A DNA stretch of 64,000 nt from assembly GCA_965233585.1 (NCBI GenBank), contig CBDDTI010000746.1, positions 288,001-352,000 of the forward strand, read 5' to 3'. Positions 1,556 through 63,605 of the stretch are shown one piece after another. This DNA comes from a bacterium (GTDB taxonomy: Bacteria > SAR324 > NAC60-12). The number at the start of each line of letters is the position of its first letter. Positions within the stretch are counted from its first letter, which is position 1. The position numbers and the translations under genes are program-made. A model generated the notes under the pieces. That model was not told where the DNA came from. It saw only the letters and a program-made list of their open reading frames with translations, and made no database searches.

Positions 1556-4500
1556 TTAAATCTCTCCACCAACACCTTTGAATTTGTCAACGAAGGCAGA
1601 GATTTTATCAAAAACGGTTTGTTTTTTCGTGTGATATTGCGGATTAAGGGGACTCATTTTGGGTAGTGCTTCGTTGAGTTCTGTGCCATTTTTGCTGGCA
1701 AATTTTCGTTCCAGTGATTTTTTGATGTAACGTTTTGCCGCTGCATCGTTTAGCTCTTCTTCTTTTATCAGTTCGGTTGCTTCTCTTTGCTGTTCTTGTC
1801 GTGCAAAAGTAAAAAATGCTTCAATCATGCTGGCTTTGTCCTCAAATGTTGCAAAATCAGCCTGATGAATGAAGTCAAGTAACAATCCTTCCTTTGATCT
1901 GTGGTCTAGGCTGGAGCTTATCATGCGTTTGACATCTTCAATCAAAGTGTCTTTGCTTTTGGTCTTTTGGTTTTTCTCAAAAATAAGCTCCAAAATATAA
2001 TCAAGGTCAATTTCTTGGGATTTGAGCAAGTCCACTTCAAACACCACATCGTCCCAATCTATCTTAGACTCGTCTTGTTTCTCTGATGCTCTTTCTTTGA
2101 TGAGCCAATCGCGAATGTCGTTATATGTAGAACGATAGTCTTGAATGGTGCGTTCTGACGGCATTTCTATTGTTTGTATGGTGGCAAAATCGTCATCGCT
2201 TAGATGGTGTTGTTTTTTAAATTCTTCTATCTCATCGGGGTTTTTTGTGTCAAGATTTTGCAAGGTTTTAAGGGTAGTAAACTCATCATAATTTTGCAGC
2301 ACATTTTCTAGCCGTAAGTACTCACCAAATAACTTGACAAATTCTTTTTTATCATCTTCTTTGTCAATTTTAGCAGGGTTAGGAAATCGTTCTTGCAAGT
2401 CCTTCACAACGTCTTTAAAACCTCGTGTCACTTGACCTGTTGCAATGTCTTTAAAGCCTTCCATGTATTCCTGATAGCTTTTCTCCAAGATGACTTGCTC
2501 GGTATGACTCCCACTTTTGCCAAATAATTTGATGGCATCTTTCGTGGCTGGTTCTAGGTTGCGAAAGGTGACAATATTGCCAAAGGTTTTGGTGGCATCA
2601 TAAATGCGGTTGGTGCGGGAAAAGGCTTGAATCAAGCCATGAAAACGCAAATTTTTATCTACAAATAAGGTGTTCAAAGTAGGAGCATCAAAGCCTGTTA
2701 AAAACATTCCTACCACGATTAACAAATCCACTTCTTGAGCCTTCACCCGCTTTGCCAAATCGCGATAATAGTTTTGAAATGCTTGGCTCTCTACACTGAA
2801 GCTAGTTTTAAAATATTCGTTATAATCAGCAATGACTTTGCCTAAAAATTCTTTTGCGGTTTGGTCCCTGGTGATTGTCTCAAAGTCCTCATCTGCAATC
2901 TCACCGATGGCATGTTGTTCTTCGTTGGCAGCAAAGGAAAAGATGGTCGCAATTTTTAGTTTCTTATCGCTGTGTTCTTGCAATGTTTGAAAGGTTTCAT
3001 AATACGATTTGGCGGCATCTATACTGCTGACGGCAAACATGGCATTAAAACCTTTGTTATTGCTTTGCAAGCGGTGCGTCTTGTGATGAAAGTTGTTGAG
3101 GACATACTGCGCAATTTCCTTGATACGATTGGGGTGCAAGAATGCTTTTTTGTCCTCTTCTGCAAAAAATTTTTGCTCATCTTGTTCGGTTTCAATCGCT
3201 TTGAACTGGGGGCGGACATCATTGTAATCTACCTTGAATTTAAGCACTTTTTCATCACGAATAGCATCGGTGATGACATAAGAGTGTAGCTCGCAACCAA
3301 ACACGCTTTGTGTTGTCTCTGCACCTGAGGCGTTGTCAAGAAAAATTGGCGTCCCTGTAAAACCGAATTGATAAAATTGCTTAAACTTCTTTCTTAAGTT
3401 TTTCTGTGCCTCACCAAATTGGCTGCGGTGGCATTCGTCAAAAATAAACACCACTTGCTGATTGTACACGGGCAAGCCTGTTTCACCTTTCATCAGGTTG
3501 TTGAGTTTTTGAATGGTGGTGACGATGATTTTATTGTCATCTTTGCTTAAATTGCGTTTGAGTGCAGCAGTGCTGCTTGAACCGTTGACGCTATCAGGTG
3601 AGAATTTTTGATACTCTTTCATAGTCTGATAATCAAGGTCTTTTCTATCCACCACAAAAAACACCTTGTCAATAAAATTTAATGCTGTTGCCAAACGTGC
3701 GGTCTTAAAGCTGGTTAAGGTTTTTCCTGAACCTGTGGTGTGCCAAATGTAGCCTCCACTTCCTGGCTTACAACTATTTTTTGCTTGATACGAGCTTTGA
3801 ATCTTCCACAAAATGCGTTCAGTCGCAGCGATTTGATAGGGACGCATGACAAGCAAAGTTTCGTTTGCATCAAATACCGAATATTTTAATAACACATGAA
3901 GCAGGGTGTTTTTTTGCAAAAAAGTAGCAGTAAAGTCTTTGAGGTCTTTAATCAAAGTATTGTCAGCCCTTGCCCAATTCATGGTAAAGTCAAAGCTGTT
4001 TTTGTCCCGTTTGGTGGTGTTAGCAAAATAGCGGGTATCCGTGCCGTTGGAGATGACAAAAATTTGCAAATACTTATACAAAGAATTGTCGCTGTTGAAA
4101 CTTTCTTTGCTGTAACGATGGACTTGATTAAAGGCTTCGCGAATGGCAACGCCACGTCTTTTTAGCTCCAAATGCACCAAAGGCAAGCCATTAATCAAAA
4201 TCGTCACATCATAGCGGTTGGCATGGCTACCTGTTTGCTCAAATTGTCCAATCACTTGCAACTTATTCTTAGCGAGATTCTTTTTGTCTAGCAAATAAAT
4301 ATTTTTAATATGTCCGTCATCAAAGACAAAATCATAAATATAGTTATCGTGAATTTTACGTGATTTTTCCTCCAAAATATCGCTGGCTTTATCCAGATAT
4401 TGCTCCACAAATCGTTGCCATTCATCATTAGAAAACTGAACGTCATTTAAGTTTTGTAATTGTGTGCGGACATTGGCAAGCATCGCATCAGGGCTTTTGA

Positions 4501-4657
4501 TATTTTTGCAATACTCATAACCTTGATTTTGCAAATCCTGTATCAATTCACGTTCTAAATCTGCCTCAGTTTGATAACTTGTTGACTGTTCTAGTTCGTC
4601 ATATTTATCCAGAACAATAAAATTATTAGATTCTATGATGGGTTTGTAATGATTCAT
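1556..4657 (-). CDS. hsdR: Type I restriction endonuclease subunit R, EcoR124 (type IC) family
   Basis: [22 protein letters not shown] nuclease motif, HTTGSGKT Walker [28 protein letters not shown]; likely start MNHYKP at 4657 with GGAG RBS (the extension to 4726 is repeat-derived). Confidence 0.95.
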
Positions 4658-4675
4658 AAGATGATCTCCAGTATT

Positions 4676-4825
4676 TTTAACCACAGATAAACACAGATAA
4701 ACACAGATAAGCTTCACAAAAAACACTATTTAATCTGTGTTCATCGTGTTCATCTGTGGTTTATTCTTAATGTTTTATTACATCTTTTTGACCACAGATG
4801 CACTCAAATTAACACAGACAGGTTT
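4676..4825. repeat. GxxExxY-associated palindromic repeat, block A
   Basis: accacagataaacacagataaacacagat ... atctgtgttcatcgtgttcatctgtggtt ... accacagat; inverted arms built from about 10-nt tandem units. Confidence 0.85.
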
Positions 4826-10821: not shown

Positions 10822-11054
10822 CTGCTAAGGGGGGTCAAGTGAAGAAATTAGGAAAAAAGAGAGGTTGCGTGGCAAATCTGCAATGACGGGAAAAACGGGT
10901 AGGAATTGGAACACCTCGTCTTTCGGCTTGTTGCTGGCTTACCTCTGGTCATTGCGGGTATTGACCCGCAATCTCTCTTTTCTTTTTTAATTTTTGTCCC
11001 CTGCTTGCTCACAAAAACACCCTCAGCGTGAGAATTGAAACACTTCAAGTGCTG

Positions 11055-15444: not shown

Positions 15445-16839
15445 CTACTTCCCAAACCTGATTAGAAACATGTCATTTTCTCCTGAATTGGCGTGTCCAT
15501 CAAAGTTGCCATAAGAGCTTCCTGTGACATAAACACTTCCCGCGGAATCCACACTCACTGCGTATCCGTCATCCTTATTGATGCTACCAAACAATTTAGA
15601 CCACTTCTTGTTGCCAGAACCATCATACTTGACTAAAAACATGTCTCTTTCTCCTGAATTGATGTGTCCATCAAAATCTGCCCAAGAGCCTCCTGTGACA
15701 TAGATATTTCCTGCAGAATCCACACTCACATCATTTCCCCAATCGTTGTTGCTAGTGCCGAGCCGTTTAAACCACTGCTTGATGCCTGAGCTGTCATACT
15801 TCAGCAAAAACATGTCTCCTCCTCCTGATTTGCTGTATCCAAAGAGTCCTGTGACATAGATATTTCCTGCAGAATCCACACTTATTCCTTCCCCTCCATC
15901 GTAACCTCCACTGCCAAGCAGTTGAGACCACTGCTTCACTCCTGAAGAAGAATACTTGACTAAAAACATGTCTCTTTCTCCTGAGTTGGTGTGTCCATCA
16001 AAATTTCCATAAGAGCTTCCTGTGACGTAAACATTCCCTGTAGAATCCACACTTACATCTTTTCCCCAATCATCACTGCTAGTGCCAAGCAGTTGAGACC
16101 ATTGCTGGTTGCCAGAGCTATCATACTTGACTAAAAACATGTTGCCACCATACTGTCCTGTGACGTGAACATTTCCAGCTGAACCTACACTCACTCCGTA
16201 TCCTACATCAGAACTGTCAGTGCCAAGCAGTTGAGACCACTGCTTATTGCCTGAACTGTCATACTTGACTAAAAACACGTCATGTTCTCCCGAATTGGTG
16301 TACCCATCAAAGTCTCCACCAAAGTATCCTGCGACGTAAACATTCCCTGCAGAATCCACACTTATTCCTTCCCCTTCATCGTAACCTCCACTGCCAAGCA
16401 GTTGAGACCACTGCTTCACTCCTGAGGAAGAGTACTTAATCAAAAACATGTCGCCATATCCTGAATTGACGTGTTTATCAAAATCTCCTTCAGAAGTTCC
16501 CGTGACGTAAACATTCCCTGCAGAATCCACACCTACATCGTCTCCCCAATCGTTGTTGCTAGTGCCAAGCAACTTAGACCATTTTTTGGTGAGCGGAACA
16601 TCATCTTTGTTTTCTTCTTCGTTGTCAGAAGAACTCCCACCACCAGACGAGCTACCATCATTTGCACAAGCAGAAATCACAAAAAATGTCAGCGGAATCA
16701 GAAAAATTTTGAGGGGGTGAGATTTGATTATGCGAAGAAAATTTTTGACAAAAAAGCAAAAAATTTGTGATTTTTGCGTTGATTTTTGAAAAAGCTGATT
16801 TAGCCTATATGGGTTGCGGATTGCGGATAAATTTTCCAT
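15445..16839 (-). CDS. SBBP-type beta-propeller repeat lipoprotein
   Basis: Lipobox ISAC, Gly/Ser linker, seven repeats of about 56 aa (VSVDSAGNVYVTG...DMFLVKYDSSG..QWSQLLGT). Confidence 0.88.
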   Translation of the reverse strand: MENLSAIRNPYRLNQLFQKSTQKSQIFCFFVKNFLRIIKSHPLKIFLIPLTFFVISACANDGSSSGGGSSSDNEEENKDDVPLTKKWSKLLGTSNNDWGDDVGVDSAGNVYVTGTSEGDFDKHVNSGYGDMFLIKYSSSGVKQWSQLLGSGGYDEGEGISVDSAGNVYVAGYFGGDFDGYTNSGEHDVFLVKYDSSGNKQWSQLLGTDSSDVGYGVSVGSAGNVHVTGQYGGNMFLVKYDSSGNQQWSQLLGTSSDDWGKDVSVDSTGNVYVTGSSYGNFDGHTNSGERDMFLVKYSSSGVKQWSQLLGSGGYDGGEGISVDSAGNIYVTGLFGYSKSGGGDMFLLKYDSSGIKQWFKRLGTSNNDWGNDVSVDSAGNIYVTGGSWADFDGHINSGERDMFLVKYDGSGNKKWSKLFGSINKDDGYAVSVDSAGSVYVTGSSYGNFDGHANSGENDMFLIRFGK

Positions 16840-31995: not shown

Positions 31996-33078
31996 ATGAA
32001 GTTGCTGAAAGAGGATTTAAAGACATTTCAACAAAGGTTGCTGGAGTGGTTTGCACAAGAACAGAGACCTTTGCCTTGGAGAAGAAAATATCTGCCTTAT
32101 GAAGTTTGGATTTCTGAGGTCATGCTTCAACAAACTCAAGTGGCGGTGGTCATTCCCTATTTTAACCGATGGATGCAAACGTTCCCGACTATTCAACCTC
32201 TGGCAAAGGCATCAGAACAAGAGGTTTTAAAACTTTGGGAGGGTCTTGGATACTATCGCAGGGCAAGGTTTATTCATCAATCTGCCAAGTTGATTGACGA
32301 GCAATTTGCAGGAGTGTTCCCAGAAAGGTTTGAAGACATTCTTTCGTTGCCCGGTGTTGGACGCTACAACGCAGGTGCGATTGCAAGCATTGCCTTTGGT
32401 CAAGATGCTCCGATTGTTGACGGAAACGTGGCAAGGGTTGCCGCTAGATTGATGTTGTGGAAAGAACCAGTCAATTCTCCAACGCTGAACAAAAAACTTT
32501 GGAGTCTTGCAAAAGATTGGATTCCCAGCGGGCAAGCAAGGTTTTTTAACCAAGCCATCATGGAACTTGGGGCAACCATCTGCCTACCTAAAAAGCCATT
32601 GTGTTTAACATGCCCCGTGAGGCAGTTTTGCTTGGCATATCATCAGGGCATGACGCATCTGCTGCCAACCCCAAAGACCCCTAAAAAAAGCAAAGAACAA
32701 CAACAAATCATTGGCATCATTCAGTCTGCTCATCAAATCTATCTTTGTTATGCCAAGTGGGGTCAGGCGTTAGGCGGACTTTGGCAGCTGCCAACATGGG
32801 CTTTGGATTCAAGTCAAAGTGCTGAAGAACAATTTGTGAACATCATCAAAAAAGAATGGGGTCAAATGCCCAAAAATTTGAAGTCTTTGGGACAAGCCAC
32901 GCATTGCTACACTTCCAATCGTATTCAACTCTCTATTTTTGCATGTCATCTGGCACAAACGACCATTCCCCAAGAACATTCTCAAAAATATCATCAAACT
33001 CAATGGGTGGCTTGGCAGGACTTCAAGGGTCTGACTCTGCCCAGCGTTCACAATGATTGCATTCTTAAAAGTCTTTGA
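31996..33078 (+). CDS. mutY: A/G-specific adenine glycosylase
   Basis: RPLPWR, VWISEVMLQQTQV, WEGLGYYRRAR, LPGVGRY, VDGNV, Fe-S cluster C-x6-C-x2-C-x5-C. Confidence 0.96.
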   Translation: MKLLKEDLKTFQQRLLEWFAQEQRPLPWRRKYLPYEVWISEVMLQQTQVAVVIPYFNRWMQTFPTIQPLAKASEQEVLKLWEGLGYYRRARFIHQSAKLIDEQFAGVFPERFEDILSLPGVGRYNAGAIASIAFGQDAPIVDGNVARVAARLMLWKEPVNSPTLNKKLWSLAKDWIPSGQARFFNQAIMELGATICLPKKPLCLTCPVRQFCLAYHQGMTHLLPTPKTPKKSKEQQQIIGIIQSAHQIYLCYAKWGQALGGLWQLPTWALDSSQSAEEQFVNIIKKEWGQMPKNLKSLGQATHCYTSNRIQLSIFACHLAQTTIPQEHSQKYHQTQWVAWQDFKGLTLPSVHNDCILKSL

Positions 33079-33122: not shown

Positions 33123-33882
33123 GGCATTGTTAAGTAATAAGTGATAGCTGATTATTCCGTTTTGCCATGAACAAAAGAACAGAATATTGTAATGCTTTAA
33201 GAGACTTGCTGTAACATTTGGTTTTCCTTCTCATTCTTGCCAAGAAATGTCTCAAGAGAGAATTATACCCTTCTATCGTGTATGTTTCTGCCTTGGAACA
33301 TGTATGAATTTCTTTGGGAATGACTTGTTTGTAAGCCTTGCAGTGATCAGTCATCACCTGAAGAGGTTTTGTTTCCTTGACCTTGTCCCATAAATGCCTA
33401 CAGGCTTTTGAGTCTCTGTTTCCAAGCACACAATTGATAAATTGCTTCCCACATCTATCAACAGCAATCCAGAGCCAGCAGTAGTTTTTTTTGACTGGAT
33501 GTAGGTGTGCATTTCATCAATTTCCATAATTTCAATGTCTGTGTCCTTTCTTAATGCCTTGAGCTGTTCGCCAAAACTACAGACCCAATTATAAACTGAA
33601 ACATGAGAACAATTCAGCAAACGACCGATTGACCTGAAACCAAGACCCTCCAAATACAACTCTAATGCTCTTCTTTTGATCTGTGGTGAGATTTGACCAC
33701 GATAGGACTTGGTATATTGATAGTTGCAGGCATTGCAACGCCTCCTCGGTTTACCATATAAAAAACCATTCTTAACCATCTTCTCACTTTCACATCTAGG
33801 ACACGACTTCATTGCTACACCATGACTATCAATTCAATTAAATGAACTTAATATCGCATATCACTTATAGTTTAACAATACC
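33123..33882 (-). mobile_element. IS1-family insertion sequence, apparently intact (InsA 33354-33812, InsB' 33130-~33495)
   Basis: TIRs ggcattgttaagtaataagtgata / ggtattgttaaactataagtgata; 8-bp target duplication aaaaatat (33115-33122, 33883-33890); A8C slippery run; EIDEMHTY, MTD, IEGYNSLLRHFLAR. Confidence 0.95.
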
Positions 33883-33901
33883 AAAAATATTATTTTAAAA
33901 G

Positions 33902-33931
33902 TTGCATTTGTTTTTCAAGGTCTGCTAGAAT
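33902..33931 (+). promoter_or_regulatory. Putative promoter of lipoprotein copy 2
   Basis: TTGCAT-18-TAGAAT with extended TG. Confidence 0.6.
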
Positions 33932-33992
33932 CCTTAACTCTCTTTTATTTCTTTTTTTTCATTCTGATTTAACCATGATTTAGGAGTTTTTT

Positions 33993-35227
33993 ATGTTAGA
34001 ACAAATCAAATCCATTCAAACCCTTTTTATCAGGGGGGGGCTTTTTATGACAAGATAATCGTTTTCTTGACACTTCTGGTCTTAGCAGGTTGCACACCTC
34101 CTGCTGAAGAAAATAAGGAGGGAGAGACGAAGAAGGGTGAAGCTACGTGCGAGGTCAACTCAAACAGTTCTGTCTCAACAGGTCAAGAATTGGTTGCCAA
34201 TTTCACTTGCACTACCACATCAATTTATCAAGGCAAAAAATTAAACATCACTTACGATGAAAGTTTGACTTCCTTGAAGCTGGTCGTCTCAGGTGAAGAA
34301 ACAACGGGGCAAAGTGGAAAACTCACCTACACCTTACCTAAACAAGAAGAATTTCAAGCCAAACTGAAGTTAACAGGAGTCACAACAGGCAAGGGACAAC
34401 TCAAGTTTAAGATTTTGAGCAAAAAATCAAACTGGGATTTTACAGTGGTACAAGGGGGACCAAAAGCATTGACGTTGGGTGCAGCGGTTGCGTCAACTGC
34501 TTTTACCAAGATGCAAGACACATCAGGCAAAGCTTATGGACGTTCGGTGATGAGGCTAGACACTTCTCAAACCCTCCTTTCCAATGACGAGACAGTTTGC
34601 AAAGATGCCCCTTTGAATGCACTGCTTGTCTCATCAGATGACTTTGTCACTTGTGAGAAAGTGTTTGTTCAAAAAGGTGATAACACCAATTATGTCATCA
34701 TTCCCAAACAAACTTGGGGCTTAAACGAAACTTACAAAGTTGCAGTGAGAACAGCAAGTGGTGCTTCTGCCTTCAATCGTTCTGGCAATGCCGTTTCCTT
34801 CACTACCAACAATGCCAACCACAACACGGTAGCTCACATTACCAGATTTGATGTTGGGTCAAGACCTAAAGTGCTAAACAATCACTTCCACTTAGAAAAA
34901 GATGGAGAACTCTGGTACTTCATCAACAAAGGCACTACGATGCCGAACTATGATGCGAGTGAATGTCAGGCAATCAACTACAAGGCAACAGATGACAAAC
35001 AATTTAAAAATCTTGCTGACAACAATCAGGATGACAGAGTCTTTGCCAGAACTATTTTAAACGGCAATACTAGTGCGTTTATCGCTAATATTTCTGGACC
35101 CAATGTCGTAGGATATTTACTCAGAGCATCAAGTGATGGTAGAGCAGGATTGAATTTTACAGCGGGAAGAAGGTACGGCCAACCTTTCTATTATCTTTGT
35201 TCTGTGAAGATTCCAGAACGTGCTTAA
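33993..35227 (+). CDS. Variable lipoprotein family copy 2; frameshifted at a G8 tract
   Basis: AGGAG RBS and ATG 33993 read [16 protein letters not shown] then LFMTR-stop; one more G gives [18 protein letters not shown] and the 386-aa ORF. Confidence 0.8.
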
Positions 35228-35254
35228 AGGTTTTCTTTTTTCCTCCCCCCTTCT

Positions 35255-35485
35255 TCATTGCGGGCTTGTTTTTTTGTCATTCCTGCGAAAGCAGGAATCT
35301 ATCCTCTAACTGCTGATGGATTCCGTGTCAAGCACGGAATGACGTCAGGACTTTGCTCACCTTGACCCGCAATCTCTTCTTTTCTGAATCGCTCCGTTTT
35401 TTGAAATTCCGTGTCAAGCACTCAAATGACGTGAGGATTTTGCTCACCTTGAAAACTGTCATTGCTGACCTTGACCCTCAGGTTT
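35255..35485. repeat. REP-like hairpin cluster
   Basis: gtcattcctgcgaaagcaggaatct, gattccgtgtcaagcacggaatgac and related units. Confidence 0.85.
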
Positions 35486-35610
35486 TAAATTTCTCATTTT
35501 TCAAAAGCTGCCCCGCCTGTTTCTTTTTGTGATTGCCCAAGTCATGCTTATTTCTTTTTTTGAGAATCGTGTTAAAATGGCGTCTTTAGACTTGACAAAC
35601 TGACAGCCTT

Positions 35611-35898
35611 ATGATTGCCATAGACACCCTTGCATATACCAAAGCCTTGATTGCAGGAGGCTTCACAGCAGAACAAGCAGAAGTCCAAGCCAACACTTTG
35701 AATCAAACACTCAATGAGTCTTTGAAAGAAGAAATTGCAACCAAAGCAGACATAGCAAAAGTGGAATCAAGAATAGACTCGGTAGAGTCCAAAATAGACT
35801 TGGTAGAATCTAAGATAGACTCAACTCGCTGGGTGTTAGGCATGATTTTAGCTGTGAATGTCGTCATGTTAGGTGTGATTTTAAGCAAATTTTATTAA
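35611..35898 (+). CDS. DUF1640/CCDC90-like coiled-coil protein with C-terminal TM anchor
   Basis: IDTLAYTKALIAGGFTAEQAE, ATKADI, 7-aa repeats VES(R/K)ID, RWVLGM plus TM. Confidence 0.8.
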   Translation: MIAIDTLAYTKALIAGGFTAEQAEVQANTLNQTLNESLKEEIATKADIAKVESRIDSVESKIDLVESKIDSTRWVLGMILAVNVVMLGVILSKFY

Positions 35899-36072
35899 GA
35901 AAAGTCTTTTTCCTTTCGTCATTGCAGACTTGCCCTTTCATCACCTGCAGGGCTTGTCTTTCCGTCATTGCTGACCTTGACCCGCAATCTGACTCTTGTT
36001 TAGAGATTGCTTTTAGAAAGATTATCGTGTCATAATCTTCTCTTTTCGTTCAGGGTTTTCAGATTTCGGGCA

Positions 36073-36453
36073 ATGCAAGCACCACACGGATTTTACAAAA
36101 AGCTAGTTTCCAACGGCTTTACAAGAGAACAAGCAGAAGGACTCACAGAAGCGCATACCGAATTTTTTGAAGAAGTCTTGGAACGAGAGACCAAACTCAT
36201 CAAAGTAGATTTTAAAAGTGAGCTTGCCACCAAGGAAGATGTCCAGAATGTCAAAGATGAGCTGAAACATGTCAGAGATGAACTGAAAGAAGACATTCAA
36301 AATGTCAGAGATGAGCTGAAAGAAGACATCTATTTTTTAAAAGGGGACCAGAAACTCCTTAAATAGATGGTTGCTTTTGGCATTTCTTTAAATCTAATCA
36401 CACTTGGGGTGTTATTAGCCTTTTTGTTCTCTTTTCTTCCTCCTGCCAAATAA
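36073..36453 (+). pseudogene. DUF1640-like protein with in-frame TAG at the conserved pre-TM Trp
   Basis: LVSNGFTREQAEGL, LATKEDV, DELK repeats; aaa TAG atg gtt..., frame continues MVAFGISLNLITLGVLLAFLF to TAA 36453. Confidence 0.75.
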
Positions 36454-36676
36454 AACCCTGTCTTTTTTAGTCACGCTTGTTTTTGAGATTACGTGTCAAG
36501 CACTCAAGTGACTGATGACGTTTGCAGGCTTGTTTTTCTTCATTGCTGACCTTGGCCTTCAGGTTTTAAATTTCTCATTTTTCTTTTAGGGATTAGTATG
36601 TTGGCGGTGTTCTTGTTCTTGAGCTAGGCGTCAATACCTGTGGACTGCCGTCATTGTCTCTCAAATCGCTTTGAGT

Positions 36677-36959
36677 TCAATGAATGTCAGAGGAAGGGAT
36701 TGGTTTTTCTTGAATTTGATCCAATATTTTTGGTAGGTCGTCTGGTAAATCTGCAAGTCTGTATCTAATGCTTGTAAATGTTTGCTTTGTTTTAAAGACT
36801 GAAACTTGAGATGCAAATAACAAAAGACATCACATAACAAATCCTTTTCTTCATCAGCAAAGAATGAAAAAAATCTAATGCTCCTGTGTGTGGGTAAAAT
36901 TTACAAACTTTTGCCTCATTTTTACAAAGATAATGGTCTTGCGCTGTCTTATATTCCAA
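36677..36959 (-). pseudogene. Possible degraded partner (toxin) gene of the Panacea antitoxin
   Basis: A TTG-initiated frame overlapping the antitoxin stop joins an open frame of about 65 codons across a T6 run; no recognisable motif. Confidence 0.25.
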
Positions 36960-37491
36960 AATAAGATTCTATCTTTTTCATGCGTTCAGAGTCGGGTTTG
37001 TAGTTTGGCAAAACAACAGACACAGGCTTTTCTTTGAGTTCAATATAAACCTCAACAAACTCATCTTTCATTGCAAACTCACTTTGAAAAAAGTTTAGCA
37101 AAGACTCATGGGTTATTGGGACGTTTTGACCCTCTTGGTAAGAATTTAGCCAAGGCGATTCTTCGTGAGTCATTTGAAATAACTTGATTGCGTCAATCTG
37201 CATGTAAGTCTCTTTGATGGCGTCAAGGATCGGGCAAGTTTTTTGTGATTCATAATCAATCAAGATGGCAGATTGTCCATATTTCTTAAAATGATGATAG
37301 ACATCTGGCACGACAGGTCCCAATTCCCACGCTTCTAAACCCTCTAAAAAGAGCGGTTTTTTCTCTATCGCCAATGAAAATCCTTGGGCATAATAAAGGA
37401 ACTTTTGTAACTTCAAATTGGAGATGACCTGACCCAAATCAGGTTGACTCCTTGCTATGATTTCTTTGGCAATCTCTATAGCACTTAGCAT
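36949..37491 (-). CDS. Panacea/DUF4065 (SocA/GepA-like) antitoxin
   Basis: ISNLKLQKFLYYAQG, EAWELGPVVPDVYHHFK, MTHEESPW. Confidence 0.9.
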   Translation of the reverse strand: MLSAIEIAKEIIARSQPDLGQVISNLKLQKFLYYAQGFSLAIEKKPLFLEGLEAWELGPVVPDVYHHFKKYGQSAILIDYESQKTCPILDAIKETYMQIDAIKLFQMTHEESPWLNSYQEGQNVPITHESLLNFFQSEFAMKDEFVEVYIELKEKPVSVVLPNYKPDSERMKKIESYFGI

Positions 37492-37607
37492 CGCAGACTC
37501 CTTAAATAAATTTTAAAATGACGATTAAAAGAATAGCATGACTCTTAAACCCAATGCCATACAAGCCACTCTTAAATCTCTCACAAACCAAAAATTATAA
37601 TTTCAAG

Positions 37608-37637
37608 TTGCATTTGTTTTTCAAGGTTTGCTAAAAT
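37608..37637 (+). promoter_or_regulatory. Putative promoter of lipoprotein copy 3
   Basis: TTGCAT-18-TAAAAT with extended TG. Confidence 0.6.
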
Positions 37638-37690
37638 TGTCATCTTGCTTTTGTTCATTTTCATTTAACCACTACCATAAGGAGATTTTT

Positions 37691-38922
37691 ATGTTAGAAC
37701 AAATCAAATCCATTCAATCCCTTCTGTCAGGGGGGGGGCTTTTTATGACAAGATAATCGTTTTCTTGACGCTTCTGGTCTTGACAGCTTGAACACCACCT
37801 AATAAAGAAAGTGAGGACGAAGACACTCAGAATCAAGCTACTTGCGAGGTTAACTCAAACAGTTCTTTGACAACAGGTCAAGAATTGGTCACCAACCTTA
37901 CATGTACCGTATCAGAGACCCATCAAGGCGAAAAATTAAACATCACTTACGACCAAAGTTTGACGTCTTTGAAGCTGATTGTTGGAGAAAAAGAAACAGT
38001 CGCACAAAGCGGAAAACTCACCTACACCTTGCCTAAACAAGAAAAATTTCAAGCCAAGTTGAAGTTGACAGGGGGCACAGCAGGCAAAGGGCAACTCAAC
38101 TTCAAGATATTGAGTCAAGAATCGGACTGGTCATTCACCGTGGTACAAGGTAGACCAAAGTCATGGACTCTGGGTGCTGCAGTTACAGCATCGGCTTTTA
38201 CTAAGATGCAGGATACATCAGGCAAAGCATACGGACGTTCGGTGATGAGGCTAGACACTTCCCAAGCCCTCCTTTCTAATGACGAGGAACATTGCGAAGA
38301 TGCTCCTTTGAACGCCTTGCTTGTCTCATCGGACAACTTTGTAACTTGTGAGAAAGTGCATGTGCAGAAAGGCGACAACACCAATCATGTCATCATTCCT
38401 AAACAAACTTGGGACTTGAACAAAACCTACAAAGTGTCGGTCAGAACGGCTGGCGGTGCTTCTGCTTTCAATCGCTCTGGCAATCCCGTTTCCTTCACCA
38501 CCAACAATGCCAATCACAACACTGCCGCACACGTCACCAGATTTGATGTTGGGTCAAGACCTAAAGTGCTAAACAATCACTTCCACTTAGAAAAAGATGG
38601 AGAACTCTGGTATTACATCAACAAAGGCAAGATAATACCGAGCTATGATAGCAGTGAGTGTCAAGCAATCAACTACAAGGCAATAAATAACAAACAATTT
38701 AAAAATCTTAATAGCAACAATCAGGCTGATAGAGAGTTTGCCAGAACTCTTTTAGATGCCAACAGCTACTATCTTTCTGGTGGCAACACTGACACTAATG
38801 TCCGTCAACTCGACGTAGGAGACGACGGTCGTGGTCGTGTACCGTATGCTGTTGCACCGGGATATGTAGCAAGATATTCTGCTTATTATCTTTGTTTTGT
38901 GAAGATTCCAGAACGTACTTAA
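37691..38922 (+). pseudogene. Variable lipoprotein family copy 3; out of frame at G9, with TGA at the lipobox Cys
   Basis: ATG 37691, G9 at 37730-37738, ttg aca gct TGA aca cca cct (37789-37791) where the paralogs have LAGC(T/V)PP. Confidence 0.82.
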
Positions 38923-38934
38923 ACGTTTTCTTTT

Positions 38935-40040
38935 CGTCATTGCGGGCTTGTGTTTAGGTCATTCCTGCGAAAGCAGGAATCCATGCTTGGTTTGGTGATA
39001 GATTCCGTGTCAAGCACTCAAGTGACTGATGACGTTTGCAGACTTGTTTTTTGTCATTGCGGGCTTGACCCGCAATCTCTCTCTTTTTCTCATTCATTCT
39101 TTCTCGTCATTCGGAGTGAAAGCAGGAATCCATGCCCTGATTGACGATAGATTCCGTGTCAAGCACGGAATGACGGGAGGATTTTGCCACCTTGAAAACT
39201 GTCATTGCGGGCTTGACCCGCAATCTCTCTACAACCGTCATTGCAAGGCTTGCCTTTCCGTCATTGCGTGCTTGACCCGCAATCTCATCTTGTTTTTTTG
39301 AGATTCCGCATCAAGCACGGAATGACGTGAGGAGTTTGCCACCTTGAGAACTGTCATTGCGTGCTTGACCCGCAATCTCTCTCTTTTTCATTCTGTTTTC
39401 ACTCTTTTTTGAGATTCCGTATCAAGCACGGAATGACGTGAGGAGTTTACCACCTTGAGAACTGTCATTGCTCACCTTGACCCGCAATCTCATCTTGTTT
39501 TTTTGAGATTCCGCATCAAGCACGGAATGACAAAAGTTATCATTCTTGCAAAAGCAGAAATCCATGCTTGGTTTGGTGAGAGATTCCGTGTCAAGCACGG
39601 AATGACAGAGGAGTTTGCTCACTTTGAAAACTGTCATTGCTCACCTTGACCCGCAAGCTCTCTCTTTTTCATTCTGTTTTCACTCTTTTTTGAGATTCTG
39701 TGTCAAGCACAGAATGACAGAGGAGTTTGCTCACTTTGAGAACTGTCATTGCTCATCTTGACCTGCAATCTCAAGAAAGTTCTTAATCGCTTCCGTTGTT
39801 TTTTGAGATTCTGTGTCAAGCACAGAATGACAAAAGTTGTCATTCTTGCAAAAGCAGGAATCCATGCTTGGTTTGGTGAGAGATTCTGAATCAAGTTCAA
39901 AATGACTAAGAGGGTCACAGAATGACGGGAGGATTTTGCTCACTTTGAAAACTGTCATTGCTCACCTTGACCCGCAATCTCTCTTTTGTTTTTTGAGATT
40001 CTGTGTCAAGCACTCAAGTGACTGATGACGTTTACAGACT
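38935..40040. repeat. Large mosaic array of about 25 REP-like hairpins in alternating orientation (BIME/NIME-like)
   Basis: Alternating gtcattgcgggcttgacccgcaatct and agattccgtgtcaagcacggaatgac with a few recurring linkers; counted by eye. Confidence 0.9.
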
Positions 40041-40091
40041 TGCTTTTTTGCTCAAACCACTAAAAATAATCAAAATTCATCATTTTAAAAG

Positions 40092-40121
40092 TTGCATTTG
40101 TTTTTGAAAATTTGCTAAAAT
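40092..40121 (+). promoter_or_regulatory. Putative promoter of lipoprotein copy 4
   Basis: TTGCAT-18-TAAAAT with extended TG. Confidence 0.6.
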
Positions 40122-40175
40122 CGCCATCTTGCTTTTGTTCTTTTTCTTTTCAACCATTTATCAAAGGAGTTTCTT

Positions 40176-41472
40176 ATGTTAGAACAAATCAAATCCATTC
40201 AAAACCTCTTGTCAGGGGGGGTCTTTTTATGACAAGATAATCATTTTCCTGACAATGCTTGTTTTAGCAGGTTGTGTGCCACCTGCTGAAGAAAATGAGG
40301 AGGACGCCGCACAGAACCAAGCCACCTGCGAGGTGGACTCTAGCAGTTCTTTGACAACAGGTCAAGAACTGGTTGCCAACCTCACCTGCACCGTGTCAAC
40401 TATTTATCAAGGCAAGCGGTTGAGCATCGCTTACGATGAAAGCCTGACGTCTTTGAAGCTGGTCGTGTTAGGGGACAAAGCGGTTGGGCAGATTGAAGGA
40501 GAAACAGTTGGGCAAAGTGGAAAGTTGTCTTACATTTTGCCGAGGAAGGCTGAATTTCAAGCCAAGCTGAAGTTGACAGGCGTCACAGCAGGCAAAGGGC
40601 AACTGCAATTCAAAATCTTGAGAAAAAAATCAAACTGGGCTTTTACAGTGGTCAATGGGGGTTCTAACCCGTCGCCAAATTCCGGTGGAGGGTCAACGCC
40701 ATCTACTCCAAAGGCATTAACGTTGGGTGTTGCTGTTACAGCAACCGCTTTTACTAAGATGCAAGACACATCAGACAAAGCTTATGGACGTTCAGTGATG
40801 AGACTGGATACTTCTCAAACTCTAGTCTCCAATGACAAAACGGTTTGTGAAGATACCCCTTTGAATGCCTTGCTTGTCTCATCAGACGATTTCCTAAACT
40901 GTGAAAAAGTTTATGTGCAGAAAGGAAACAAAACGAATCACGTCATCATTCCCAAGCAAACTTGGGGCTTGAACAAAACCTACAAAGTGGCAATTAAAAC
41001 GGCTGGCGGGGCTTCTGCTTTTAATCGCTCTGGCAATCCTGTCTCTTTTGCCACTAACAATGCCAATCATAACACAGTGGCTCACATCACAGGCTTTGAT
41101 GTAGATTCGTTCTCTCAAGTCCTAACTGATGACTTCCATTTGGAAAAAGATGGAGAACTCTGGTATTACATTGACAAAGGCGACAGGATACCAAGATATG
41201 ACAGTAGTGAATGTCAAGCCGTCGACTATCAAAATACAAAGAGCGTCAAATTTAAAAATCTTAACAATGATAACTCTGGTAATAGAGCGTTAGCCCAAGC
41301 TGTTTTCGGAGATACTCAACGTCATTACGTTGGTAGAGCTTTCACTGCCACAGTTACTGTTATATGGACACTCAATGGTATCAGACCTTCCGGCTACAGT
41401 ATAAATAATAAGATCGCCGGTATAAACAATATTTATTATTTTTGTTCTGTGACAATTCCAGAACGTACTTGA
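40176..41472 (+). CDS. Variable lipoprotein family copy 4; frameshifted at a G7 tract
   Basis: ATG 40176 reads [15 protein letters not shown] then VFL-stop; G6 or G9 gives SFYDKIIIFLTMLVLAGC and the 405-aa ORF. Confidence 0.8.
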
Positions 41473-41504
41473 ACGTTTTCGTTTCTTCTTCCTTTCTTCC
41501 TTTT

Positions 41505-41666
41505 TGTCACTGCGGGCTTGTGTTTAAGTCATTGCTCGCCTTGAGTGAGCAATCTCTCTTTTGTTTTTGAGATTCCGTGTCAGGCACTCAAGTGACGGGA
41601 GGATTTTGCTCACTTTGAAAACTGTCATTGTGGGCTTGACCCGCAATGACAGTTTTCAAGGTGAGC
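41505..41666. repeat. REP-like cluster ending in a 59-nt fold-back hairpin
   Basis: gctcactttgaaaactgtcattgtggg-cttga-cccgcaatgacagttttcaaggtgagc. Confidence 0.85.
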
Positions 41667-46004: not shown

Positions 46005-46070
46005 AGCATCGCAGTCATTTGATTTTTTCATCTAACTTTTCTAATCTATTTGTTTTTAAGGCTAAAAAAC

Positions 46071-46295
46071 ATGATAGACACACTTGCTTACACCAAAGAA
46101 CTGACGGCTGTCGGCTTCACTCCTGAACAAGCAGAAGTCCAAGCCACTGCACTTAAAAATGCAGTGGAAGAAGACACTGCCAATGTCAAGTCTGAAATTG
46201 CTGAATTAAAAGGAGAAATGAAACTCAACCGTTGAATGCTTGGCTTTGTTCTGGTGATGGTTTCTGGCATCTTTGTTAAGTTATTCACGGGTTAA
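46071..46295 (+). pseudogene. DUF1640-like tandem copy A with TGA at the pre-TM Trp
   Basis: Nearly identical to copy B, including upstream DNA; 18-nt internal deletion; cgt TGA atg ctt..., frame continues to TAA 46295. Confidence 0.8.
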
Positions 46296-46389
46296 AATTT
46301 TAACGTTTAGAACTTCTCTTACAATCCTTTCAGCCATTTGATTTTTTCATCTAACTTTTCTAATCTATTTGTTTTTAAGGCTAAAAGAC

Positions 46390-46632
46390 ATGATAGATAC
46401 ACTTGCTTATACCAAAGAACTGACGGCTGTTGGCTTCACTCCTGAACAAGCAGAAGTCCAAGCCACTGCACTTAAAAATGCAGTGGAAAAAGGCACTGCC
46501 ACCAAAGAGGACATTGCCAATGTCAAGTCTGAAATTGCTGAATTAAAAGGAGAAGTCAAATTGAATCGCTGGATGATAGGATTCTCTATTGCCTTGAACG
46601 TTGCTGTTTTCCTCAAATTATTTATGGGTTAA
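46390..46632 (+). CDS. DUF1640-like tandem copy B, intact
   Basis: MIDTLAYTKELTAVGFTPEQAE...ATKEDI...LNRWMIGFSIALNVAVFLKLF. Confidence 0.82.
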   Translation: MIDTLAYTKELTAVGFTPEQAEVQATALKNAVEKGTATKEDIANVKSEIAELKGEVKLNRWMIGFSIALNVAVFLKLFMG

Positions 46633-55384: not shown

Positions 55385-57192
55385 CACGAATGATGAATGA
55401 CATTCAAATTCTGCCTGAAGAAATCATTAATCAAATCTCTGCTGGTGAGGTGGTAGACCGTCCCGCTTCTGTGGTGAAAGAGTTTGCAGAAAACTCTCTT
55501 GATGCAGGAGCGACGCAGATTTACGTCACCATTCAAAACGGAGGCAAAGAGTTAATCTCGGTGGCAGACAATGGGCATGGCATGACTGAAGACAATGCCA
55601 AGCTGGCAATAGAAAGGCATGCCACTAGCAAAATTTCTGTGACTTCTGACCTTGACCATATTCAGACGATGGGTTTTCGTGGGGAGGCATTGGCGGCGAT
55701 TGCCTCTGTTTCTCGGCTGGAATTGCTGACCTGTGCCAAAGAGGGTCAAGCAGGTACAAGGCTTGAGGTAGAGGGAGGGAGGTTGAAGCAGTGCCACCAA
55801 GTGGGGTTTCCTCAAGGCACAAAGGTTGTGGTCAAGCAACTTTTTTTCAATACGCCTGCACGGTTGAAGTTTATGAAGACGGTGGCGACAGAGTTCCGTG
55901 CCATTCAAGAGCAGTTTTTATCGCTGGCACTTCTTTATCATCATGTCCACTTCCGATTGACTCACAACAACAAACTTTCATTTGACCTGCCTGCCAAAGA
56001 CAACCTGTCAGCAAGGGCTTATCAGCTGTTCCAAGAAGACTTTGGAGCATCGGTATTTCCACTTTGGCATGAAGAATCTTATTTGAAATTGGAGGGGTTG
56101 TTTTCCTTACCTTCCCGCACCAAACGTTCTAGGTCTAAGCAATATCTTTTTGTCAATGGACGCTACATTCGTTCACCTGAGATGGTCAGTAGTGTGTATC
56201 AGTCTTATGGTGCATTGATTGAAAGGGGAAGCCACCCGCTTTTTATTTTAAAAATCTCTCTTGACCCTTCTGAAATTGATGTCAACGTCCACCCTGCCAA
56301 AACTCAAATCCGCTTTAGGAACCTCAAAGTCGTGACAACGATTATTGAAGAACAGCTGACCCAACAAATTAGAAAGCAATCTGACCAAAGATATTTTTCA
56401 GACCAAACCAAGCCCCGTGTTTCTGGGTCTCAATATCCGTCTGTTCAAAGTGCAGTTCAAAATCCCGATGTGGTTTCTGACTCAGCCTTGTCTTCTGCCA
56501 AGCCAAGTCATTTGACTATCTTGCAACACCCCTCGTCAAACGAAGCAGGACAGCTCAAGTTTCAACTACCAAAGGTAGTCTTGCCTAAACCGAAGGTCAA
56601 AAAAGAGCCAAAAGAGCAGTGGACTGCCATCGTTCAACTGCAAGACCGCTACATTTTGGCTCAAACTCCCAAAGGGTTGTTGTGCATAGACCAAGAAGTG
56701 GCAAGCCAGACAATTTTAGAACAGCGATTGCACCTTGAAATCAAGAATGACACCTTGCTCATTCATACCTTTCATTCTCCGATTCTGCTGGAACTTGCAC
56801 CGCATCTTGATTTGGCACTGGCTAAAAATTTACCCCTTTTCCAAAAACAAGGCTTCACGTTAGAAGAGTTTGGCAGAAACACCTATCGCTTGTTAACAGC
56901 ACCAGATTTTTTGAAGTATCTGGACTGTGCCACGATGATTCAAAACGTCCTGACTCAAGTCATAGAACAGCATCAACTCAATGACCCTGAACAAATGGCG
57001 GGGCATCTCACAAGTCAAGCTGCGAAGTTAGGGGCTTATTCTGTGGGCAGGGTGTTGTCTCTTTCCCAAATGAATCAGTTGCTTCAAGCTATGCAACAAC
57101 TTCAAATGTCAGCAACAGATTCCCATCGTCAACTTCTTTTTATAGAATGGAGATATGAAGATTTGGACAAGCAATTTGCTAAAAAATTATAG
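55381..57192 (+). CDS. mutL: DNA mismatch repair protein MutL
   Basis: ISAGEVVDRPASVVKE, DNGHGM, RHATSK, GFRGEALA, DVNVHPAK. Confidence 0.95.
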   Translation: MTRMMNDIQILPEEIINQISAGEVVDRPASVVKEFAENSLDAGATQIYVTIQNGGKELISVADNGHGMTEDNAKLAIERHATSKISVTSDLDHIQTMGFRGEALAAIASVSRLELLTCAKEGQAGTRLEVEGGRLKQCHQVGFPQGTKVVVKQLFFNTPARLKFMKTVATEFRAIQEQFLSLALLYHHVHFRLTHNNKLSFDLPAKDNLSARAYQLFQEDFGASVFPLWHEESYLKLEGLFSLPSRTKRSRSKQYLFVNGRYIRSPEMVSSVYQSYGALIERGSHPLFILKISLDPSEIDVNVHPAKTQIRFRNLKVVTTIIEEQLTQQIRKQSDQRYFSDQTKPRVSGSQYPSVQSAVQNPDVVSDSALSSAKPSHLTILQHPSSNEAGQLKFQLPKVVLPKPKVKKEPKEQWTAIVQLQDRYILAQTPKGLLCIDQEVASQTILEQRLHLEIKNDTLLIHTFHSPILLELAPHLDLALAKNLPLFQKQGFTLEEFGRNTYRLLTAPDFLKYLDCATMIQNVLTQVIEQHQLNDPEQMAGHLTSQAAKLGAYSVGRVLSLSQMNQLLQAMQQLQMSATDSHRQLLFIEWRYEDLDKQFAKKL

Positions 57193-62158: not shown

Positions 62159-62384
62159 TCTAACTCCTGAAATTAAAAAAGCTCCTATTCTATCTCTTTT
62201 GAAAAAAAACGCAAGTTGTGGGTTTAGGTTAGCAATGGATGCAGGTTGTCATTGCAGGCTTTTCCTCAAAGTTTTCTACCATTTCAACCTCCTGAAATTC
62301 AAAAAGCTCCTATTCTGTCTCTTTTGAAAAAAAGTCAAGAGTTTAAGCAAAGGTTTGTTTCATAGGTGTTTTTTGGGTAGGAAT

Positions 62385-63605
62385 TTAAAGGTTTTGGATT
62401 TGTTGTTTGGAAAGTCCAGTAGCAAGGCAAATGGTTTCAATGTCAATGCCTTGAGCAAGCATGTTTCGGGCAATGTCAAGTTTCTCTGCTTGCCTTCCTT
62501 TTTCCATTCCTTTTTCCATTCCTTTTTCCATTCCTTTTTCCATTCCTTTTTCCATTCCTTTTTCCATTCCTTTTTCCATTCCTTTTTCCATTCCTTTTTC
62601 CATTCCTTTTTCCATTCCTTTTTCCATTCCTTTTTCCATTCCTTTTTCCATTCCTTTTTCCATTCCTTTTTCCATTCCTTTTTCCATTCCTTTTTCCATT
62701 CCTTTTTCCATTCCTTTTTCCATTCCTTTTTCCATTCCTTTTTCCATTCCTTTTTCCATTCCTTTTTCCATTCCTTTTTCCATTCCTTTTTCCATTCCTT
62801 GCTGAAGACCTTCTTCTTTGCCTTCTTGCCTTCCCTTTTCCATTCCTTTTTCCATTCCTTGTTGGAGACCTCTTGCCATTCCTTTTTGAAACCCTTGTTT
62901 AAGTTGAAGTTGTTCAGCACCTTTGATGATGGCAACAAACTCTTGTCTTTTATAGACGACCTCTAATTCTTCAGGAGATAGCCCTGCTTGATTGACCAGA
63001 TGCAAGGCTTCTTGAATGGTTGGGTCAAAAGTTTGGGGAATCTCTTGTAACCCTTCTGCATGCTTGATGCAATAAATCCACTCTTCTTGCAACTCTTTGA
63101 GTTCATCTAAAGGCTTTTGAAACTTTGGGAGTTCCACAAAAATCAATTCAATGTCATCAGAATACTGACTTAAATTCTTCTTCTCTAACAACTTGAAAAC
63201 ATTGATGATTTGGTCGTTGTCTTCAAACATGATGAAATCAAGGATATTGAGTGCAATGACAGGATTGAGCAGATGATACTCGTTGCCTTTCACCAGTTGC
63301 ATAGAGTAGTTTTTACAAGCATTGTAGAGGATTCTCTTCTCAAAGCCTTCATGGTTGACGACCTGCATCTCAATCAGAACTTGCTGACCTGTGTCAAGTT
63401 TCGCTTTGACATCAACAAAGGTGATTTTCATACCCTCTAACAAAGGTGGATTATAAGGGTCTTGAATCGTCAGGTCTTGAATGGTCTGCTGATGAGGGAA
63501 CTCAATCAGCGAATTGAGAAAGCTGATGAGTAGGTCTTTGTTCTTCTCATCTCCAAACAGCATCTTAAAGGCGTAATCTGTTTTAAGGTCTAAAAATTTC
63601 ATCAT
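62385..63605 (-). CDS. Rpn/YhgA-like PD-(D/E)XK nuclease with an expanded C-terminal repeat
   Basis: DYAFKMLFG, LISFLNSL, DVKAK...IEMQV, FVELPKF, IARNMLAQG.DIETI..ATGLS. Confidence 0.92.
   Translation of the reverse strand: MMKFLDLKTDYAFKMLFGDEKNKDLLISFLNSLIEFPHQQTIQDLTIQDPYNPPLLEGMKITFVDVKAKLDTGQQVLIEMQVVNHEGFEKRILYNACKNYSMQLVKGNEYHLLNPVIALNILDFIMFEDNDQIINVFKLLEKKNLSQYSDDIELIFVELPKFQKPLDELKELQEEWIYCIKHAEGLQEIPQTFDPTIQEALHLVNQAGLSPEELEVVYKRQEFVAIIKGAEQLQLKQGFQKGMARGLQQGMEKGMEKGRQEGKEEGLQQGMEKGMEKGMEKGMEKGMEKGMEKGMEKGMEKGMEKGMEKGMEKGMEKGMEKGMEKGMEKGMEKGMEKGMEKGMEKGMEKGMEKGMEKGMEKGMEKGMEKGRQAEKLDIARNMLAQGIDIETICLATGLSKQQIQNL
62497..62796 (-). repeat. 25 perfect 12-bp tandem repeats (GMEK)
   Basis: cctttttccatt x25, with further degenerate units to about 62890. 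Confidence 0.95.

Follow-up and report, generated by a model that had tools for sequence, protein, structure and literature searches.

The window analysed here is a stretch of 64,000 nucleotides (nt) from an uncultured bacterium of the SAR324 lineage NAC60-12 (C746:288001-352000, where C746 is contig CBDDTI010000746.1 of assembly GCA_965233585.1), and the coordinates of all its gene copies are given as window positions. It carries four copies of a gene for a putative lipoprotein, three of which have a run of G between the translation start and the lipobox. A 27-nt leader motif marks the four copies on the + strand (736 with one mismatch, 33993, 37691 and 40176, against 0.00 sites expected), and a G7 pattern has seven matches in the window representing four distinct runs, three of them in the lipoprotein family (expectation 1.64; at least seven in 2 of 100 shuffles). 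In copies 2, 3 and 4 the Shine-Dalgarno sequence AGGAG stands 6 nt 5' of an ATG that opens the peptide MLEQIKSIQ, followed by the G run. The lipoprotein frame of the window copies then encodes YDKII(V/I)FLT(L/M)LVLAGC and a body of 390-414 codons.

Copy 2 has its AGGAG at 33982-33986 (+) and its ATG at 33993, which opens a leader (33993-34058) that is now read as 21 codons before a TAA. Its G8 tract (34033-34040) leaves 53 nt between the ATG and the TAT of YDKII, so that +1 or -2 nt is needed and the start would be in frame at G9 or G6. The lipoprotein frame itself (34046-35227, +; Cys codon 34091-34093) has an intact 393-codon body ending in ..KIPERA and a stop. Copy 4 is similarly built, with AGGAG at 40165-40169, ATG at 40176 and a leader (40176-40232, +) of 18 residues as now read, then TGA. 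Its G7 tract, followed by a T (40215-40221), gives a distance of 52 nt, so that -1 or +2 nt is needed (G6 or G9). Its lipoprotein frame (40228-41472, +; YDKIIIFLTMLVLAGC, Cys codon 40273-40275) keeps an intact 414-codon body ending in ..TIPERT and a stop. In copy 3 (AGGAG 37680-37684, ATG 37691), the leader (37691-37756, +) encodes 21 residues as now read and then a stop; the G9 tract (37730-37738) again gives 53 nt, with +1 or -2 nt needed (G10 or G7). The lipobox of this copy is destroyed: in its lipoprotein frame (37744-38922, +) LTA is followed by a TGA (37789-37791) in place of the Cys codon, two further lipobox positions are substituted, and about 375 codons beyond stay open. Copy 1 is a remnant (724-1440, +) that retains AGGAG and has ATA (736-738) where ATG is expected. 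Its tract is interrupted (AGGTGCGGG, 775-783), the distance to YDK is 54 nt, and the frame reads through into the lipobox (Cys codon 835-837). Family sequence is lost beyond about residue 190, unrelated sequence runs on to a stop at 1440, and the 3' end is truncated.

A previous sequence-only reading of this stretch had placed the three tracts out of frame with the lipobox segment, needing +1, +1 and -1 nt, and had described copy 1 as reading straight through an interrupted tract; every coordinate and frame was confirmed to the base. It had missed the ATA start and the 3' truncation of copy 1 and overlooked the TGA at the Cys codon of copy 3. Its conclusion that the window has no expressible copy stands, although it is lesions outside the tract that inactivate copies 1 and 3. 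As it had also remarked, the annotated genes lack their N termini: open reading frame (ORF) lists and public gene calls begin at TTG 34067 (MTLLVLAGC) and ATG 40255 (MLVLAGC) and therefore miss the leader.

A promoter-like block precedes all four window copies and is conserved among them. It consists of TTGCAT, 18 nt and TGC-TAGAAT in copy 2 (33902-33931, +), where we read its second half as an extended -10, and of TTGCAT, 18 nt and TGC-TAAAAT in copies 3 (37608-37637, +) and 4 (40092-40121, +). The block of copy 2 has no entry in the promoter scan because its -35 fits at only 3 of 6 positions.

A genome-wide search for paralogs, as the sequence-only reading had proposed, was made by BLAST with a 232-nt 5' block and detected 18 copies of the cassette on contigs C745, C746, C747 and C729. 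The 18 aligned copies have in common about 110 nt of upstream sequence, the Shine-Dalgarno sequence, the leader, the position of the tract and the signal peptide. Mean pairwise identity is 76% over the 110 nt upstream of the ATG and 84% in the leader, against 46% further upstream. The conserved upstream block holds TTGCAT-18 nt-TGCTA(G/A)AAT, which we read as a putative extended -10 promoter. In ten of the copies the distance from ATG to YDK is 54 nt and the precursor is continuous (ON); in the other eight it is 52 or 53 nt and the two parts are out of frame (OFF), with a stop 2 or 5 codons past the tract in the wrong frames. The differences in length between the two sets always fall in the tract region. 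Four of the in-frame copies carry a pure G9, one carries GGGGGGTGG and five have mixed sequence in place of the tract, whereas the out-of-frame set comprises G5TG, G7, four G8 and two G9. Pure runs of G7, G8 or G9 thus occur in 11 of 18 copies. When the tract is subtracted, copies with a backbone of 45 nt are ON at G9 (four copies) and OFF at G8 or G7+T (two copies), while the five copies with a 44-nt backbone all have G8 or G9 and lie one or two steps from their ON lengths, G10 or G7. As the ten in-frame sister copies show, four of which have an intact G9, the sequence from leader to lipobox represents one continuous precursor.

The same tract pattern was found in a pair of distant paralogs that have another leader and 43% protein identity to the family over the matched part. 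One of them, at C745:319800, carries a G9 in the corresponding position, out of frame, whereas its sister at C746:703149 is in frame with GGGGGGTGG. In 753 long ORFs of this genome, GGG is the least used Gly codon (16.6%) and AGG accounts for 13.5% of Arg codons. Retention of the tract at such a distance, despite these unfavoured codons, speaks for phase variation. Still remoter paralogs, together with an external homolog (P0013), have ordinary lipoprotein signal peptides with a terminal lipobox Cys.

Apart from the tract, seven of the eight OFF copies bear no lesion and reach the canonical C terminus, the only internal stop being that of window copy 3. The ratio of nonsynonymous to synonymous substitution rates (dN/dS) was 0.20-0.41 over the 45 pairs of ten full-length copies of the main C-terminal type; this set leaves out the ten pairs with C747:990624, a Kelch-type copy that a motif filter had misfiled as main type. 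Pairs of OFF copies (n = 15) gave 0.20-0.31 and pairs of ON copies (n = 6) 0.27-0.38, at dS of 0.31-1.09. In a simulation of neutral evolution, the probability that the body of copy 2 stayed free of stops was 0.57, 0.33 and 0.06 at divergences of 1%, 2% and 5%, respectively. With full-length bodies intact and under selection, and OFF-OFF dN/dS this low at dS of at least 0.31, these seven OFF copies are not old pseudogenes; considered with the simulations, the intact bodies indicate that the OFF states are either far younger than the paralogs or reversible.

The encoded proteins are putative exported lipoproteins with a common N-terminal beta-rich module and exchangeable C-terminal modules, as predicted from sequence. 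Copies 2 and 4 and the in-frame paralogs have a lipobox of the form L-[AS]-[GA]-C after a charged n-region, unusually long at about 21 residues, and a hydrophobic core; LASC and LVGC occur as variants in the family. The genome encodes the lipoprotein maturation enzymes Lgt (PF01790, E = 5.9e-53) and LspA (PF01252, E = 6.2e-34). Two C-terminal types were distinguished. The main type, found in ten copies and in truncated copy 1, has the characteristic ending ..IPER[AST], and its C-terminal domain matched no entry of Pfam or NCBIfam. The second type, in seven of 18 copies and none in the window, is a Kelch beta-propeller ending in ..NDVWEFGP or close variants (in P0014, Kelch_1 at E = 2.7e-28 and PF24681 at E = 3.6e-31). 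An AlphaFold2 model from a 10-row alignment was unusable (mean predicted local distance difference test score, pLDDT, 39), and the ESM Atlas offered a weak lead to an Ig-like fold (Big_5; score 0.90, 140 shared features). The family is lineage-specific as judged from these searches: a protein search of 40 related genomes (24 sharing its family, 16 its order) returned no match, against 43 in the genome itself; among 5.8 billion proteins, a word-based search matched 15, one of them an external sequence; and a profile search of 1.84 billion representatives returned 20 proteins at E up to 0.001. Profile-based locus searches of genome contigs and metagenome contigs gave no confirmed match, and a degenerate leader-plus-tract pattern had no match in metagenome contigs. 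The leader DNA pattern had three matches in genome contigs, two of which were examined and rejected as chance occurrences inside a putative methyl-accepting chemotaxis gene.

We consider translational phase variation by slipped-strand mispairing the best reading of this family, and a reasonably probable one. The G tract, which separates a strong translation start (AGGAG and leader) from the signal peptide's hydrophobic core and lipobox, would gain or lose a G by replication slippage, so that ATG and lipoprotein frame would be joined (ON) or parted (OFF). The OFF state would yield a peptide of 18 or 21 residues ending at the TGA or TAA just past the tract. As assembled, the three tract-bearing window copies are OFF and the four G9 copies elsewhere ON, several copies that have lost the tract are locked ON, and with so many paralogs a population could display changing subsets of lipoproteins. 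The length of any one tract would change reversibly, the lipoproteins would be exposed at the surface, and switching might serve to diversify the cell surface under pressure from, for instance, phages, grazers or a host. Two traits of contingency loci are present: a simple uninterrupted repeat lies inside the reading frame, and its length decides whether start and frame are joined. The sequence-only reading had proposed phase variation, an interpretation that is partly supported: architecture and the comparison of paralogs speak strongly for it, whereas length polymorphism of a single locus in the population, the trait that defines phase variation, is what it presumes.

Several points limit this interpretation or weigh against it. 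No length polymorphism of a single locus was seen in the public sequence runs that hold this DNA, four runs from two samples of one study, available as Logan contigs of about 8x and 3x depth. The contig pieces that align to 33800-41600 at 97% likeness are short; none of those listed bridges a tract, and no indel rows occur at the tracts. The public piece adjoining the G9 of copy 3 begins at 37740, just past the tract, and contig breaks at the leader are expected in any case because the leader is an 18-copy repeat. The genome, metagenome and protein searches turned up no relative elsewhere that would allow conservation of the tract to be tested. The lengths G7 and G8 fall below the cut-off of at least 9 for poly-G applied in a Neisseria phasome study (PMC5953494), which G9 reaches. 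MutS and MutL are both encoded in the genome, so that switching may be slow. Shared ancestry of the paralogs makes retention of the tract in close copies weak evidence when taken alone, and copies 1 and 3 show that some members are merely decaying.

Such decay could be extended to the whole family, the G run being a mutational hotspot and the out-of-frame copies young pseudogenes or silent donors for recombination, with no return to the in-frame state. The second, independent lesion of copy 3 (the TGA at the lipobox Cys plus two substitutions), the loss of the ATG and the 3' half in copy 1 and the presence of mismatch repair genes are consistent with one-way decay, as is the mixed sequence that replaces the tract in five in-frame copies, which is expected if the tract is a liability. 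We nevertheless regard this explanation as unlikely. It would take seven independent and very recent inactivations, all at one tract, in copies that are otherwise undamaged and whose OFF-OFF dN/dS is 0.20-0.31 at dS of at least 0.31, and it does not account for the persistence of the tract in the 43%-identity subfamily against codon preference. A different possibility is that the copies OFF at the level of DNA still yield some lipoprotein by recoding, through slippage of RNA polymerase on the G run or on a U5 run past a terminator-like hairpin, or through ribosomal frameshifting, and that hairpin and U run may attenuate transcription. One entry of the terminator scan is a hairpin at 34021-34040, in which a pyrimidine-rich segment pairs with the G run and CTTTTTAT follows. 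Most copies fold likewise at -6 to -10 kcal/mol, the segment 5' of the tract varies in sequence in the alignment yet remains pyrimidine-rich, and two copies that have no G run form Watson-Crick stems there (CCUUCU/AGAAGG and CUCUC/GAGAG). The stems are weak, however, and made mostly of G-U pairs (energies of -0.9 to -9.8 kcal/mol, z of -2.0 to +1.7), and the hairpin is absent from two tract-less copies. RNAalifold chose another structure with compensatory changes in 0 of 10 pairs, and no pairing register is consistent across copies. Because in-frame copies bear the same element, it is not specific to the copies that need a shift. Recoding therefore seems quite improbable as an account of the OFF copies, and we treat the hairpin as a lead for attenuation or transcriptional slippage and not as a finding.

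Several sequencing platforms are known to handle homopolymers poorly, and the tracts might in reality be in frame and miscounted in the consensus, an objection that the sequence-only reading had itself named as grounds for refutation. The low depth of the public runs and the breaking of their contigs at the leader repeat leave room for such an artefact. The controls were confined to the five large contigs (2.9 Mb of a genome bin of 12.0 Mb in 747 contigs), because many small contigs appear eukaryote-like. A frameshift signature was defined as two long open frames that meet in different frames. It occurred at 16 of 2274 A/T runs of length 7, 6 of 597 of length 8 and none of 68 of length 9 or more, against 718 of 100000 random sites (0.72%). 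The five contigs contain 30 G/C runs of at least 8, of which 10 belong to the family, one to a distant paralog and 19 to other sequences. Among the latter, 16 read through long open frames, two lie at ORF starts and one, a run of 14 C, has the frameshift signature. Runs of at least 8 were in frame versus out of frame in 4 versus 6 cases in the family and in 16 versus 1 elsewhere (Fisher's test, p = 0.004). The absence of a frameshift excess at other G/C runs of at least 8 and at A/T runs makes assembly error unlikely as the cause. Four family G9 tracts are in frame besides, and the five copies with a 44-nt backbone would need errors of +1/+2 or -1/-2, which is no uniform bias. We thus consider a miscounted consensus very unlikely. 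The least credible of the alternatives is that ribosomes initiate on the OFF copies past the tract, which would then be irrelevant to expression. This alternative has on its side the choice of TTG 34067 and ATG 40255 by gene callers, a TTG just 5' of the tract in many copies and the P0006 call, which begins with MSGGVFYDK. Proteins starting with MTLLVLAGC or MLVLAGC, however, would have no charged n-region and a hydrophobic core too short for export, and neither TTG 34067 nor ATG 40255 is preceded by a Shine-Dalgarno sequence. A TTG 5' of the tract is still separated from the lipobox by the tract, and the in-frame paralogs are continuous from an ATG with Shine-Dalgarno support.

Phase variation as proposed here has parallels in several bacteria. 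Campylobacter and Helicobacter switch genes by frameshift at short G/C tracts (7 to 9 or more) within the coding sequence. To our knowledge these genera lack MutS and MutL, unlike the present genome, which has both. The Vlp, Vsa and Vpma proteins of Mycoplasma form large sets of paralogous surface lipoproteins whose genes agree at the 5' end and in the signal peptide but vary in the body, each copy being switched ON or OFF individually. In Neisseria, the pilC tract lies in the signal-peptide region, and the Opa repeat in the signal-peptide coding region. The present family resembles the Mycoplasma families in its paralogous lipoproteins with conserved 5' ends and signal peptides and variable bodies; those families, however, switch through promoter poly-A length or site-specific inversion and not through coding poly-G, and no homology to them was found, the main type having no match in Pfam or NCBIfam. 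With pilC (and lgtA and pglA) it shares a G/C homopolymer in the 5' coding region that would switch a surface-related protein ON or OFF by frameshift; it differs in the shorter tracts (G7-G9), the lipoprotein nature of the product, the roughly 13 tract-bearing paralogs and the uncultured, non-pathogen lineage, and in that switching here is presumed. Opa is likewise a multi-copy surface family with its own repeat in each copy and ON/OFF combinations, but has a pentamer repeat and beta-barrel proteins, with no sequence relationship to this family. The Neisseria phasome study gives the genic repeats as G(9-20) in pilC and CTTCT(7-21) in Opa and describes phase-variable homologs beside homologs in which the tract is absent or interrupted (PMC5953494), a mixture also seen in this family with its tract-bearing and its tract-less or interrupted copies. 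Vpma is described as a variable surface lipoprotein family of Mycoplasma (PMC2268961).

Other repeat loci of the genome suggest, as far as their sequences go, that phase variation may extend beyond this family. Perfect arrays of the heptamer (ATCCGCA)n or its reverse complement (GATTGCG)n, with 8-24 copies, and one octamer array lie outside the window at C746:71141-71266, C746:488283-488450, C295:101577-101695, C745:167236-167298, C747:156519-156574 and C747:846356-846435. Each array is flanked on one side by a promoter-like block, TTGACT..TATA(A/T)A, and the other strand carries ATGGAAAATTT, a context common to all. A bolder proposal would be a large phasome beyond the classical pathogens, in a possibly host-associated uncultured bacterium, with more than 12 poly-G-gated lipoprotein genes, further lipoprotein genes switched through heptamer repeats and a single 40-nt element, comprising the tract, its terminator-like hairpin and the U run, in which DNA slippage would be combined with slippage or attenuation of transcription, so that expression would be graded and not purely binary; we hold this to be speculative and rather unlikely. 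Possible association with a host is suggested by the binning with eukaryote-like contigs. Contingency loci are documented almost wholly in host-adapted pathogens and commensals, and if the repertoire of this uncultured lineage, some 20 genes, is real, cell surfaces outside those groups would be shaped in the same way. Such genes are given wrong starts by gene callers, so that what appear to be truncated ORFs may be complete lipoprotein genes in the OFF state.

Three further G/C homopolymers occupy switch-like places. A run of 13 C at C295:21866-21878 is found in a 2245-codon ORF, 5 codons after its open stretch begins, a run of 14 C at C729:57424-57437 lies between two open frames, of 185 and 164 codons, that differ in frame, and a run of nine C at C746:776286-776294 lies at the very start of a 298-codon ORF. 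The bin as a whole seems to combine a bacterium with contigs of a eukaryote. Many of the 641 contigs shorter than 20 kb look eukaryotic, with TTTAGGG telomere-type arrays, microsatellites and G runs of 10-27 (e.g., contig C13:52768-53284), and the marker-based contamination figure of 2.09% is blind to eukaryote-like contigs. A genome-wide plateau of poly-G runs of 10-27, considered as a bacterial trait, was rejected since these runs are mostly in the small eukaryote-like contigs.

Within the window, the neighbours of the lipoprotein copies are genes for homoserine O-succinyltransferase, an aminopeptidase, MutY and a sodium:solute symporter, and between these housekeeping genes lie small ORFs (with HTH_23 or SocA/Panacea antitoxin domains, or CCDC90-like) and dense short palindromic repeats. 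The mutY gene (31996-33078) is directly upstream of copy 2 and looks intact; its relatives have 37-49% identity and come from many phyla, too wide a spread to inform on taxonomy. A match to MutL inside the window (56020-56370) also looks intact. On the - strand, adjoining truncated copy 1, a 1056-codon ORF (1556-4726) encodes what we take to be the R subunit of a type I restriction enzyme.

The hairpin of copy 2, formed by the pyrimidine-rich arm and the G tract and followed by CUUUUUAU (34021-34049), has counterparts at the same place in other copies, and in 17 of 18 copies the tract and the U run are bracketed by a 5-nt inverted repeat, TGTCA..TGACA. Dense families of palindromic short repeats fill the DNA that separates the lipoprotein copies (..TCATTGC..CTTGACCCGCAATCTC.., ..ATTCCGTGTCAAGCACGGAATGAC..; 260-578, 10931-10984, 35236-36583, 38933-40047 and 41503-41630), the unit of which contains CCGCAAT, the heptamer that is expanded elsewhere in the genome. 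Two of the small ORFs with CCDC90-like coiled coils lie between copies 2 and 3 (35611-35898 and 36007-36366), and related sequence occurs within 46012-46501 as two repeats (46012-46182 and 46331-46501) that are 96% identical. Six diverged direct repeats with a spacing of about 138-171 nt and strongly negative GC skew occupy 15453-16559, and at 62382-62933 an A+T-rich stretch holds a long tandem array of period 12 nt (60-100% identity over more than 30 registers).

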